Origin: a virus
Reading direction: 5' to 3' (one strand)
Length of the DNA stretch: 64,000 nt
Virus record (IMG/VR): IMGVR_UViG_3300047557_002769
Span: 1-64,000 of that record
Below, in pieces: positions 526-49,747 of the stretch (its first letter is position 1; each line of letters begins with the position of its first letter). Under the pieces are notes generated by a model that did no database searches, was not told the DNA's origin, and saw only the letters and a list, made by a program, of their open reading frames with translations. Position numbers and translations under genes: made by a program.

Positions 526-3379
526 AACCAATTCTTCTCCATAAAGTAATCGATGAGACATACTCAATTACTTCTCCGATAGCTATTGAGTTATAGTTTG
601 TAACTATATCGCTAGTATAAGAATCATTAAACACACCTTCCACCTGTGTATACTCTAAAGCACCATTATCAGTATAGGCTATTGGTCCAAGATAAGGTAT
701 AAATTCAGTACCTGTATATTGAACCCCGGAGTTTACATAATCTTCACTAAAAGAAGATGTATAGTTAGTTTGTGTTAAAAAAGCTTGATTATATCCAGCA
801 TAATCAGCTTCATAGATCGAAATATTAGCGAATACTTTATCATAATACCCTATATAAACTAGTTGGTCAGAATAACTTGTATTATATGTATTAGTATAAT
901 TGTTTATTGAATTATCAAAAATCACCGCATCGAGCGGTGATGTATCCAAACCGGTGTATGTAGTGTTATAATTAGATTCGGAATATAAATTCACACTAGA
1001 ATAGTCTGTGGATCCAATATAAGCGTCAATAGTGTAAGTTGCTGGTGATGTGTATTCTGTTGTATAGACTTCCGCACCGCCACTACCACCCAGAAAGACA
1101 GTTACATAACCTATAGTGTAATTAGTATCAGCTGTATATACGATCGTGTTAGATATAAAGAGAGAAGTATATTCGATTGGACCTGTGTAGTTGGTATCGT
1201 ATTGACCTATATAGGACGTGCTAGGCCCCACGTAACCATCTATAAATCCTGCAAAGTCAATATCACTGGTATAAACACTAGCTACTACCGAATAATTGAG
1301 ATCTCCTGTATAGTTAATTAGGTACCCGGGTATACCCTGATACAGCTCAGAATAACCTAGAAATGTAACATAAGAAATATCATAAGTTGAATCAAATGTA
1401 ACAAATGATTGATCACCCGGTGAAGTATAAAATGCAGTTTGATCGTAGATCGTCGTAATAATATTTGTATATGCTACGCCTCCTTCGCCAGTATACTCGA
1501 TAGTGTACCCTATATCAGGGTCGGTGTATTGTAATAGGGTAGTATAAGTTAAATTTGGACCGGTGTATAAGATAGGACCGGCAAAATCTCTTGATCCTAG
1601 GTAAGTTAAACTCTCAAACGCTCCACCCGTGTCTCTTGCGTATATCGCATTACCGGTGTAGTAACCACCTACAACACCAATATAAACATCTGTACCAGTG
1701 TAGTAAGCAGAAATAATATATTGAACAGACCCCGGTCCGACGAAAGGTACATCGCGATTATAGTTGGTTGTGCCTGTATAAATTGGGTTAACAACAGTAA
1801 ATGTTGCAAAAGTCGAAAAGACAGTATCCGGGTCAGTATATACTGTACTAAATGTATCAAAAGTTGCGTACTCTGGTTCAACAATATTTGTATAATATGC
1901 TCCGCTGTTGTATATACTTGCTGCGTCACCTGTATAGCTAGCTAATGTGTAACTATTAGTAAAGGTAGAGGTAAAATCTAATTCATTACCACCAATGTAT
2001 TCTTTCTCGCTTAAGAAAGTAAACTCACCTGTATACGGTATCTGATATGCCAAACTATCATACCCGAAGATATACGGCGTGGTGTAATAAATGTCGTCTA
2101 AGGTATAGCTAGACTCACCTACAAATATAGTCGAGTAATCAGTGCTATCTGCAATACCGGTATATAGATTTGAAGCTCCGGTATAAATACTGACATTTAA
2201 AAAGTTTATATACGATTCTAAATCATTTGTGTAATCTATGTCACCGATAAATGTAGTTGCATTTGTATATACAATAAAACTAGTATAATCTGTATCATAA
2301 AATCTAGTCCCCGTGTATGTATTAAGGGGGCCGAAATAAGTACCACCTGGTCCAAAATAGTTAGTTGTTGCAATTGGTACAGCATTATTTTCGTAAATTA
2401 CATTGTATAAACTAGTAGGGCTGTTAAAGAAAGTATCTAGTGTATAGTTTATTGGACCGGTATAAAAAATAGGACCAGTATACGTCTCATTTAGATATTC
2501 TTCACCGGTGTACGCAATGTCACCAGGTCCGGTGTAAACATTATCATAACCAAATGGCCCTGTGTAGGAGACTGCATCTTTTAAATAGTCGGCGATATAG
2601 TTAATAGAATCATATGTTAGTATATAACCATCCGGGGTTAAATAAATCGTATCGGTTGATCTTCTTAGATCATAAATTGTACCTCTCGCTTCCCACACGC
2701 CGTTCTCTGGAGCTGATTCCTGCAATACATAATAATTTTTACCTGATGAATTAATATAGTCTTCAACTATTTTTATAGTGTTGTCAATATCTGCAACACT
2801 AAAAACCTGTAACTCACTGCTTACTAATTTGCTTGGACTTATGTAGCTAGAAGTTCCGCTGTCTATCTTCTGCCATAGATGGTATGTTGACTGAACCTCT
2901 GTAAAATTATTAAAAGTATCCTGTATACTTCCTCTACTAACCCAGGTATCGCCATCCGAAGGAGCAGACTCACCGAGATAGTAAGAAGTTATTCCACCAG
3001 ATAAAACAACGCTTAAAATTTCAGCAGCTACGTTAGCGTGAGTATCTTTATTTTCTTGTAAAATAGTTGTATTACCAACTAGATTCAATCCAATAAAATA
3101 GGGAGGATCAGTAGCTACCTGCGTTGATTGTATTTGAGATAAAGTATAAACATTAGATACAATATCTACGTTTGATCCGCCCTCACCGGAAGCACGTGCA
3201 GTATCAGTAAAATTACCAATAACGCTACCTTGAGCGTTACCGAAAATAATAGTACCTGTGTAAGTACCACCGGCCATACGGCGTAATACTTCGCGGTAGA
3301 AGCTATCAAGCTCTGACGCAGATGCTTCTAAAAGCTCTACACCAGATAGGGTGCTGGTGCTATATACAATACTGACCAT
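524..3379 (-). CDS. Giant Tyr/Thr-rich putative virion appendage protein (paralogue A, 951 aa)
   Basis: About 240-aa N-terminal repeated domain, then ~700 aa of YT/YTG(P) motifs; ends ITLWRRIG; in the structural region. Confidence 0.7.
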   Translation of the reverse strand: MVSIVYSTSTLSGVELLEASASELDSFYREVLRRMAGGTYTGTIIFGNAQGSVIGNFTDTARASGEGGSNVDIVSNVYTLSQIQSTQVATDPPYFIGLNLVGNTTILQENKDTHANVAAEILSVVLSGGITSYYLGESAPSDGDTWVSRGSIQDTFNNFTEVQSTYHLWQKIDSGTSSYISPSKLVSSELQVFSVADIDNTIKIVEDYINSSGKNYYVLQESAPENGVWEARGTIYDLRRSTDTIYLTPDGYILTYDSINYIADYLKDAVSYTGPFGYDNVYTGPGDIAYTGEEYLNETYTGPIFYTGPINYTLDTFFNSPTSLYNVIYENNAVPIATTNYFGPGGTYFGPLNTYTGTRFYDTDYTSFIVYTNATTFIGDIDYTNDLESYINFLNVSIYTGASNLYTGIADSTDYSTIFVGESSYTLDDIYYTTPYIFGYDSLAYQIPYTGEFTFLSEKEYIGGNELDFTSTFTNSYTLASYTGDAASIYNSGAYYTNIVEPEYATFDTFSTVYTDPDTVFSTFATFTVVNPIYTGTTNYNRDVPFVGPGSVQYIISAYYTGTDVYIGVVGGYYTGNAIYARDTGGAFESLTYLGSRDFAGPILYTGPNLTYTTLLQYTDPDIGYTIEYTGEGGVAYTNIITTIYDQTAFYTSPGDQSFVTFDSTYDISYVTFLGYSELYQGIPGYLINYTGDLNYSVVASVYTSDIDFAGFIDGYVGPSTSYIGQYDTNYTGPIEYTSLFISNTIVYTADTNYTIGYVTVFLGGSGGAEVYTTEYTSPATYTIDAYIGSTDYSSVNLYSESNYNTTYTGLDTSPLDAVIFDNSINNYTNTYNTSYSDQLVYIGYYDKVFANISIYEADYAGYNQAFLTQTNYTSSFSEDYVNSGVQYTGTEFIPYLGPIAYTDNGALEYTQVEGVFNDSYTSDIVTNYNSIAIGEVIEYVSSITLWRRIG

Positions 3380-48113: not shown

Positions 48114-48458
48114 TTAGCCGTTGTAGACTTTGGCTAATCCTTCAGCCACTAAAAGTTCGCTAACAGATGGCTTATCTGGGCTCAGATAGATATCTGCTAG
48201 CCAACGACCGTACTTATCTGTCTTATGAGACTTAAGTAACACAGGCTTGTTTAATACAAGCTCGGTCAAACGCTGCTTTGCAGCCCTTGCGGATTCTCTT
48301 AGTTGAACGTTAGGGTCATTCATCTCTTCCGTATCAATGCCCTTAAGACGGAAACGTACGTTAACAGAAACAGTAAAGCCAAGCTGCACTGTTGCATCAA
48401 CGGTATCACCGTCTACTACGTTTGTGACTGTTGCGTTGTAGATGTATTGTTGTTTCAT
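48114..48458 (-). CDS. Thermonuclease (SNase-like)
   Basis: VVDGDT, RL.GIDT.E, DKYGRWLA, GLA..Y. Confidence 0.9.
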   Translation of the reverse strand: MKQQYIYNATVTNVVDGDTVDATVQLGFTVSVNVRFRLKGIDTEEMNDPNVQLRESARAAKQRLTELVLNKPVLLKSHKTDKYGRWLADIYLSPDKPSVSELLVAEGLAKVYNG

Positions 48459-48465
48459 AATAGTT

Positions 48466-48775
48466 AGCGCTGGTTGATTCTGTTTCCAAGTTCAACCAGC
48501 AAAACTCAGATGGCTTAAGCAGCCATCAAGAATTGCTCATCGTTTGCAATTACTCTTTTTGCTTCTACGGCCGGGAATTCCCAACCCTAACGGCTTTCGC
48601 ATTGCCGGATCGTCCATCTTACTACTCTTTACCCTGTCGAAACCAGTGCATCCCCATCAAAAGCACATCTAATTCCTCACCTTGTGGCGTCTCATATTTC
48701 GGAGCCGAGCCTGATATGCTTTTGGTGGAGATGGCGGGAGTCGAACCCGCGTCCAGAACACTTTTCGTTTAACTT
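48466..48775 (-). ncRNA. ssrA: Circularly permuted (two-piece) tmRNA
   Basis: T-arm GCGGGTTCGACTCCCGC plus CATCTCCACCA (CCA end at 48723) precedes 5' GGGGATG (48655); G3:U acceptor pair; tag ORF 48547-48515 ANDEQFLMAA*; outer boundaries approximate. Confidence 0.93.
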
Positions 48776-48782
48776 CATACGA

Positions 48783-49364
48783 TCATACAGTCAGAAGTAA
48801 GTAACCTTCTTGATTATAGAACTTACTGACCTGGTAATTATATTTATCTAAGAAGGATAAATCAAGCCCAAAACGGTTACGTTCCGCCCAATTACCACCT
48901 TCAAATGGACCATCTTCGTAAATTCTCAAATCGTCACAAATAATGACGTCCTTTTTACCTGATCGATGTTTACTAATGATCTCGATCTCTTCCTCGAGTG
49001 GAAAATTAAGATCTGAATCCATGATTACGTTTCCGTTATTCTTATCATGTTCCGGTAGATGTGCATCTAGATAGAACACGATTGATTCTTCATCGCTAAG
49101 AATAGGTAGTAATACGTTAAGATAATCTATAGAATTATTATGATAGATAGTAACTTTTGACGAATCAAACTTACTTCTACAAAGATTAACCATCTCAATA
49201 TCAACATCACAGCTGAATAAATGATTGAAATCGAATTCAGCTAAAGCATAGCTCAACGAATTACCTCTAAAGCAACCGGTTTCTACAAACATCGTTGAAC
49301 CATTAAGCTTTTTAAGGTACTTTATCTTTTCACAACGTTCATTAAAGTTAATCAATGATCCCAT
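48783..49364 (-). CDS. Methyltransferase-fold protein
   Basis: FVETGCFRG, SCDVD, FYLDAH, ICDD. Confidence 0.65.
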   Translation of the reverse strand: MGSLINFNERCEKIKYLKKLNGSTMFVETGCFRGNSLSYALAEFDFNHLFSCDVDIEMVNLCRSKFDSSKVTIYHNNSIDYLNVLLPILSDEESIVFYLDAHLPEHDKNNGNVIMDSDLNFPLEEEIEIISKHRSGKKDVIICDDLRIYEDGPFEGGNWAERNRFGLDLSFLDKYNYQVSKFYNQEGYLLLTV

Positions 49365-49385
49365 TTCTCATCCCTCCACATATGC

Positions 49386-49414
49386 ATTTTACAGTCAAGG
49401 CAATATAAAATCAA
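49386..49414 (-). promoter_or_regulatory. Sigma70-like promoter
   Basis: TTGATT-N17-TAAAAT upstream of a GGAGG RBS. Confidence 0.6.
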
Positions 49415-49417
49415 TGG

Positions 49418-49747
49418 TTAAACTGGCTTACCTAAGTTTAATTTACCGAAACCCGTTGATATGATGCAAGCAACACCTGTATCCTTGAGTAGCATTACAG
49501 TCGTATAGTCACCGGTCTTTTCATTCAATAATAATATTGTGACCAGATTGTTTGGTTTTTCGTTAGTATGAAAATTGTCTGAGCCAACGAATACTGGTAC
49601 CTCCCCTCCATCCTTAAGATTCTTAAGCAGCTCGGCTGCTGGCATGCACAGGACAGGGAGTGGTACTTGCTTCGGTGAACTAAGTTGAGCTGACGAGGTT
49701 AAACTTAGACTCGTAAAGATCGCGATAGCGAATAAGCTCTTTAACAT
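49418..49747 (-). CDS. Secreted hypothetical protein
   Basis: Signal peptide; two cysteines. Confidence 0.7.
   Translation of the reverse strand: MLKSLFAIAIFTSLSLTSSAQLSSPKQVPLPVLCMPAAELLKNLKDGGEVPVFVGSDNFHTNEKPNNLVTILLLNEKTGDYTTVMLLKDTGVACIISTGFGKLNLGKPV

Follow-up and report, generated by a model that had tools for sequence, protein, structure and literature searches.

A circularly permuted two-piece tmRNA gene of beta type in the genome of a T4-like aquatic phage

Two-piece ssrA has been described in the T4-like Methylophilales (OM43) phage Melnitz (Buchholz et al. 2022, PMC9004378). In the same study tmRNA was counted in 402 of 18,146 phage genomes, 53 of them two-piece and 50 of these from aquatic phages, and 17 of 47 Melnitz-like contigs carried a permuted tmRNA (PMC9004378). 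Other phage tmRNAs, those of the mycobacteriophage Bxz1 group and of Bacillus phage G (PMC4131195), are one-piece with the standard gene order, and the huge phages (PMC7162821) carry standard-order tmRNAs as well, some together with SmpB; all of these are phage-borne rescue RNAs presumed to use the host translation system. The Menderavirus group of Stenotrophomonas phages (Mendera, Moby and vB_SmaM_Bhz51, ~160 kb) carries a permuted gene of beta type (118.5 bits with RF04321 and 92.1 bits with RF01850), for which ssrA is annotated in some GenBank records while most have no annotation at the site. Stenotrophomonas itself has a standard one-piece tmRNA. Among bacteria, a betaproteobacterial two-piece tmRNA was reportedly described by Sharkady and Williams in 2004.

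The DNA analysed here, referred to as the window, covers positions 1 to 64,000 of an IMG/VR virus record of 163,234 bp, which has direct terminal repeats and is rated complete. The sole RNA gene that ARAGORN calls in the 64-kb window is a tmRNA in permuted order (tmRNA*), located on the minus strand at 48424-48815 and encoding the tag ANDEQFLMAA*. The Rfam model tmRNA_permuted (RF04321) matches 48515-48784 at 129.2 bits (E 5.6e-25; model positions 1-213 of 213, untruncated), against a curated cut-off of 47 bits. The beta_tmRNA model (RF01850) matches 48464-48855 at 98.9 bits (E 7.8e-29; model positions 1-331), a modest margin over its cut-off of 84 bits when set beside the 169-329 bits of its bacterial members. 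The ARAGORN and Rfam matches are far beyond chance. A preliminary description, made from the sequence alone, had read the locus as a phage-encoded, circularly permuted two-piece tmRNA and had proposed ARAGORN or Infernal with permuted tmRNA models as a check; ARAGORN, RF04321 and RF01850 all return that call. Because two independent detectors agree, the virus record is complete, the helices covary and the genomic slot is conserved, this core reading is supported, and by its sequence the locus is very probably a functional ssrA gene, circularly permuted, of a phage lineage of beta-type two-piece tmRNAs.

The likeness to Melnitz is close in genomic setting. Both are permuted tmRNA genes in T4-like (Kyanoviridae-like) lytic phages that have no smpB, both are frequent though not universal among relatives, and both occupy the same slot, 3' of PhoH and a PD-(D/E)XK nuclease and 5' of a gp33-like coactivator, gp59 and gp32. 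The RNAs themselves differ. The Melnitz gene is alpha-type (RF01849, 106.7 bits), encodes a tag of 14 residues, ANDNYVPVDYALAA, and has a glutamine riboswitch at its 3' end, whereas the window gene is beta-type with a 10-residue tag, and a search for the riboswitch in the window gave no match at E <= 1. The Menderavirus gene is likewise beta-type and shares the acceptor stem GGGGAUG/CAUCUCC, an encoded CCA and a stem-closed spacer (56 nt), but it belongs to an unrelated phage group, lies within a tRNA cluster and encodes the 14-residue tag VAANDDSYTVRIAA; only ~80 nt can be aligned with the window gene by BLAST, at 81-83% identity. The vB_SmaM_Bhz51 gene lies at 2983-3356 of its record (locus L002), and 16 other Menderavirus records share the beta-type permuted tmRNA. 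Unlike the Bxz1-group and phage G genes the window gene is permuted, and unlike some huge phages the window phage has no SmpB.

Compared with the betaproteobacterial two-piece tmRNAs modelled by RF01850 (Rhodocyclaceae, e.g. Dechloromonas and Azonexus), the window gene exceeds the model cut-off, its tag is near-identical (ANDEQFLMAA against ANDEQFAIAA), and the loop motifs of their 3' hairpins are related. CCA is encoded in 81 of 89 phage genes but in only 10 of 58 bacterial beta-type genes, the median spacer is 89 nt in phages (67 nt in the window) against 28 nt in bacteria, a second hairpin ahead of the tag is often added in the phage forms, and the window gene is without the last hairpin of the bacterial model, whose terminal 9-bp hairpin is deleted in the Rfam alignment. 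In some phage relatives a terminator hairpin replaces it. At the bacterial loci (L003-L122), CCC stands in place of CCA in 34 of 58 and CCT in 13 of 58.

The window gene is thus a well-supported further member of a published, common class; the class, its genomic slot and its proposed roles are already in print, and it opens no new question. The new points are modest: a beta-type phage clade, an encoded CCA with a conserved spacer stem, and alpha- and beta-type genes sharing one slot. What sets it apart from Melnitz is its beta type, its place in a phage-only clade and the lack of a riboswitch. Its value for annotation is that of a clean minimal example, with an empty spacer and no riboswitch, of a class that is frequent in aquatic T4-like phages and that many database records leave unannotated.

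Structure and covariation of the two pieces

All features described below are on the minus strand. The permuted order runs from the CCA end at 48723 through a 67-nt spacer to G1 at 48655. The acceptor piece (48723-48784 in the Rfam alignment) comprises the 5' strands of helix P2 (GAUCG 48784-48780, UGU 48760-48758 and CUG 48756-48754), a T arm of 5 bp with a 7-nt loop (GCGGG/UUCGACU/CCCGC, 48750-48734), the acceptor 3' strand CAUCUCC (48733-48727), the discriminator A48726 and the encoded CCA (48725-48723). The coding piece (48469-48655 in the Rfam alignments) begins with the acceptor 5' strand GGGGAUG (48655-48649), which pairs with CAUCUCC in a 7-bp stem containing G3:U. It continues, by the same alignment, with the D-loop analogue CACUGGUUUCGA (48648-48637) and the 3' strands of P2 (48636-48608). 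The T arm and acceptor end with CCA at 48723, the intervening segment of exactly 67 nt (48722-48656), the 5' GGGGATG at 48655 and the alanine-type G3:U pair had all been pointed out in the preliminary description and are present in the sequence as it gave them. Its span for the gene, 48466-48775, holds for the elements it listed, all of which lie where it placed them, but falls short at the 5' side, where the gene starts about 9 nt further out with the P2 strand GAUCG (48784-48780).

Covariation was assessed in 36 phage sequences against a null of 500 shuffles and of slid partners. Paired cells make up 86.5% of the total in these sequences compared with 69.7% in shuffles, and cells changed on both sides number 245 compared with 72; neither value was reached in any of the 500 shuffles. 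Sliding the partners lowers pairing from 86.5% to ~42%. Across the 36 phage sequences pairing is complete (100%) in both the acceptor stem and the T arm, and compensatory changes affect 3 pairs of the former and 4 of the latter; all 36 have G3:U, and A73 is invariant. In the same set pairing reaches ~95% (94.9%) in P2a and 98.6% in P2c/d, and 10 of 11 pairs carry two-sided changes. The Rfam-predicted P2b segment UUAA/UAAG, at 24.3% pairing in the 36 sequences, is unsupported.

Between P2 and the tag lie hairpin P3 (48607-48591, 98.5% paired in relatives) and a second pre-tag hairpin (48586-48569, 97.2% paired in relatives). A pseudoknot between the P3 loop and downstream sequence was considered, but none was seen by eye and the region reads as two consecutive hairpins. 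The stretch ahead of the resume codon (GUAA..GCA) is conserved. The tag frame called by ARAGORN at 48515-48547, GCA AAC GAU GAG CAA UUC UUG AUG GCU GCU UAA (ANDEQFLMAA*), starts on the alanine codon GCA and ends GCU GCU UAA, a hydrophobic ..AA and a stop. Compared with the family consensus ANDEQFALAA, a string absent from the papers searched, the window tag has synonymous codons for D, E, Q and A and two conservative replacements. Because the tag peptide is kept through synonymous changes, the peptide, and not the RNA alone, appears to be under selection. Among relatives in a sample drawn through the adjacent exonuclease, 14 different tags occur; all start AN[DE], one with an extra leading A, and all end [LIM]AA.

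The 3' domain covaries likewise. The fold places a stop-codon hairpin GAUGGCU/AGCCAUC at 48509-48527, with the stop codon in and beside the loop; in relatives the hairpin is 84.5% paired, with compensatory changes, and is offset by 3 nt from that of the window. Downstream, covariation of two stems supports an H-type pseudoknot (48469-48507) with a loop containing the conserved motif AACAGAA. Stem S1, GAGU/ACUU (48507-48504/48491-48488), is 98% paired in relatives, and stem S2, GCUGGUUGA/UCAACCAGC (48500-48492/48477-48469), reaches 87.7% pairing, with two-sided changes at 6 of 8 pairs. In the nearest relative, L249, S2 reads GUAAGUUGA/UCAACUUAU, three compensatory double changes away from the window. 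The tag and the GATGGCT/AGCCATC hairpin noted earlier are thus both present, and what had been taken for a terminal hairpin at 48500-48469 is there too, as stem S2 of this pseudoknot. Relatives split into two 3'-domain types, so that a column-wise transfer of the window's 3' hairpins onto an alignment of mixed type gave no fit; the pairing figures for the stop-codon hairpin and the pseudoknot refer to relatives of the window's matching type only.

Genomic slot, phage relatives and phylogeny

The neighbours of the gene are of T4 type: gp32, gp59, PhoH, a PD-(D/E)XK exonuclease and a cell-wall hydrolase. The gp32 protein is closest to those of Synechococcus myophages (58-59% identity), but a reading as a cyanophage was set aside, as neither psbA nor psbD is present in the genome. 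The 163-kb genome has a GC content of 39%, carries 28 tRNA genes elsewhere and contains no integrase. Given the T4-type neighbours and the lack of integrase, psbA and psbD, we take this to be a lytic T4-like aquatic phage, one that probably infects a heterotroph. It adds to the evidence that lytic phages carry parts of translation quality control beside large tRNA sets. The tag might also be thought to indicate the host, since in bacteria ANDEQFxxAA* is found mainly in Rhodocyclaceae; in the tree described below, however, phage and bacterial genes fall into separate groups. The GC content of Rhodocyclaceae genomes is far above 39%. In view of this separation and the GC mismatch, we draw no host conclusion from the tag.

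The tmRNA gene exactly fills the gap between two protein genes. The upstream one (48783-49364) encodes a conserved hypothetical protein of 193 aa with 280 homologues, at up to 70% identity over 99% of its length, and with no match to a Pfam or PHROG family; its stop codon overlaps the first P2 strand. The downstream one (48114-48458) encodes a staphylococcal-nuclease-like endonuclease of 114 aa (Pfam SNase, 1.8e-14; PHROG 452 endonuclease, 2e-29), and its start at 48458 lies 11 nt beyond the pseudoknot. No U run follows the pseudoknot, and there is no intrinsic terminator between the tmRNA gene and this next gene. A candidate promoter, TTGATT-17-TATAAT (48837-48865; 10 of 12 matches in a consensus scan), lies ~45-50 nt upstream of the acceptor piece, within the 3' end of the upstream gene, although promoter-like sites in the region as a whole are no more numerous than in shuffles. 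TATAAT- or TAAATA-like boxes stand just upstream of the tmRNAs of relatives. The final ~80 nt of the 193-aa gene carry tmRNA promoter-like motifs.

In T4-like aquatic phages the order of the slot is PhoH, PD-(D/E)XK exonuclease, tmRNA, cell-wall hydrolase, gp59 and gp32, and the same slot and neighbours are found in at least ~45 IMG/VR loci among the relatives collected by tag pattern. The 193-aa gene, a 109-aa gene upstream of it and the SNase-like gene (together 48114-49747) were not found by tblastn in relatives sharing the outer neighbours. The absence of these three adjoining genes indicates that the tmRNA gene sits in a variable patch of the replication module.

Scanning IMG/VR with the tag pattern ANDEQFxxAA* returned at least 119 stretches, and ARAGORN calls a permuted tmRNA in at least 94 contigs, nearly all with the tag ANDEQFALAA; these represent at least 82 distinct sequences and at least 69 clusters at 92% identity. 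Over the coding piece the window gene is ~75-79% identical to the nearest relatives among the matches listed. To sample relatives independently of the tmRNA itself, 39 loci were found through the adjacent exonuclease; 19 of the 39 carry a permuted tmRNA; for the 31 loci whose downstream sequence is long enough, the figure is 18. Rfam typing of 13 of these tmRNA loci gave 11 of beta type, one matching the general permuted model only and, as the most distant, one of alpha type. Phage tmRNAs had been described beforehand as uncommon, which is true overall (2.3% of isolate genomes, PMC9004378) but not within the phage group of the window, where 18 of 31 sampled relatives carry one. Among bacteria, only 4 of 151 genomes sampled from the order of the Rhodocyclaceae reach the RF01850 cut-off; one of the negatives, G028, is an unpublished genome.

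In a quick maximum-likelihood tree the window gene, on a long branch and with no more than 75% identity to any of the relatives found, falls in a set of 60 rows (SH-aLRT 100) apart from the bacterial rows. This set, marked with a star in the tree, consists of the window, 57 phage rows, the Melnitz outgroup and one MAG contig; the alignment has 261 columns, the rooting is unsure, and the joining of Melnitz to the phage set is flagged as a likely long-branch artefact. Within the bounds of this quick tree and its unsure rooting, the window gene does not descend from inside the bacterial, Rhodocyclaceae-type clade but belongs to the phage clade. We raise, as a tentative and on balance doubtful proposal, that aquatic phages maintain a long-lived clade of their own of beta-type two-piece tmRNAs, apart from the Rhodocyclaceae lineage. 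If this proposal is true, the presence of alpha- or beta-type genes in the same slot of related T4-like phages would mean repeated replacement. Under the same proposal, phages could have been the source of one bacterial two-piece lineage, or the transfer could have run the other way.

A phage-type permuted tmRNA (119.7 bits, tag ANDEQFALAA) also occurs on a 23-kb contig of a Haliscomenobacter MAG (L019; G003:C90), whose largest contig has a second tmRNA match. L019 is probably a phage contig binned into the MAG, and is possibly a hint of a host.

Proposed role of the tmRNA in infection

By analogy with known tmRNAs, the likely role of the RNA is trans-translation with host SmpB during infection. 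Transcription from the candidate promoter inside the upstream gene's 3' end would give a single precursor. RNase P would cut 5' of G48655 (with U at -1), trimming would leave the encoded CCA at 48723 as the 3' end, and the stem-closed spacer of 67 nt would be lost; with no terminator 3' of the gene, the 3' end of the coding piece is probably set by processing at the pseudoknot. The acceptor and coding pieces would be held together by the acceptor stem and helix P2, and host AlaRS would charge the RNA by way of G3:U and A73. It had been remarked that the window has no smpB; that is so, and none is present in the whole 163-kb genome either, so the phage must rely on host SmpB accepting its RNA. 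Host SmpB and EF-Tu would then bring the charged RNA to stalled ribosomes, where translation would resume at GCA and append ANDEQFLMAA, marking the unfinished protein for host proteases and freeing the ribosome. The benefit would likely be that ribosomes are kept available late in lytic infection, a stage at which the host no longer makes RNA and many mRNAs are broken. The locus offers a compact test case of whether a phage tmRNA works with a foreign host SmpB.

A more specific and speculative purpose, raised as a possibility in the preliminary description, would be counter-defence, that is, ribosome rescue after host toxin RNases or abortive-infection nucleases have cut mRNAs or arrested translation. 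This would be compatible with everything presented for general trans-translation, and the optional presence of the gene in relatives (18 of 31) and its variable flanking genes are typical of accessory or host-interaction genes. However, no defence or anti-defence gene is linked to it, its neighbours being genes of replication, nuclease and lysis functions, and the sequence does not separate such a purpose from general ribosome housekeeping; we consider counter-defence unlikely to be the explanation.

Considerably less probable is that the RNA acts as a decoy, binding host SmpB or AlaRS and thereby shutting down host trans-translation. That the phage has no smpB would suit a decoy, phage tmRNA-like decoys have been discussed in print, and this function was proposed for the RNA of mycobacteriophage DS6A, which consists of the tRNA-like domain only (PMC4131195). 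Yet a decoy needs no message, while here the tag frame is intact, its peptide is kept through synonymous changes, the GUAA..GCA stretch is conserved, and the stop-codon hairpin and 3' pseudoknot covary, all of which speaks against a pure decoy.

Although tmRNA genes often serve as integration sites and ssrA fragments are found in prophages (PMC4383910, PMC9004378), the notion of an inert gene, whether an assembly chimera, chance host DNA or a leftover of integration at ssrA, is by now nearly refuted and has a very slight probability, for the gene is full length and not a 3' fragment, exactly fills the space between two genes in a genome without integrase, is syntenic and covarying across dozens of lytic T4-like contigs, and in the tree lies within a phage-only clade apart from the bacterial beta-type tmRNAs.

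The spacer and its variants in relatives

Maturation presumably removes the intervening segment (48656-48722). A stem of 10 bp (48722-48713/48669-48660) closes it, GAU precedes G1, and reading its sequence revealed no ORF of more than 8 codons in the 67 nt. Across the 36 phage sequences 90.4% of the closing stem is paired, and each of its 10 pairs shows two-sided changes. Under the tentative proposal of a separate phage clade, the encoded CCA and the long spacer with its covarying closing stem may be maturation features specific to phages, and the free slot that the spacer provides may be what favours the permuted form in phages.

Folded alone, the acceptor and spacer give ~20 bp of almost uninterrupted duplex (-32.4 kcal/mol, z -4.1). 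In this fold (48649-48733) the acceptor stem stacks on the closing stem of the spacer, with the duplex interrupted by single unpaired bases only. The predicted duplex would be long enough to be a possible substrate of RNase III type.

Longer spacers, of 115-232 nt, occur in some relatives (L135:7955-8212, L138:3059-3603 and L133:406-618). Some of them enclose small ORFs, among them a hydrophobic ORF of ~37 codons in L135; the ORF in L138 is longer, and the L133 spacer contains the tRNA-like fragment GGTTCGAATCC. A subgroup of phage permuted tmRNAs (L133, L135, L137 and L199) has the odd T loop GGCAGUG where others have UUCGANU, and the same subgroup has the D-loop analogue CACAGGAUCGAUUGGG in place of one ending in UGGUUUCGACAGGG. 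Judging by their sequences, the T loop and the D-loop analogue seem to change as a pair in these four genes.
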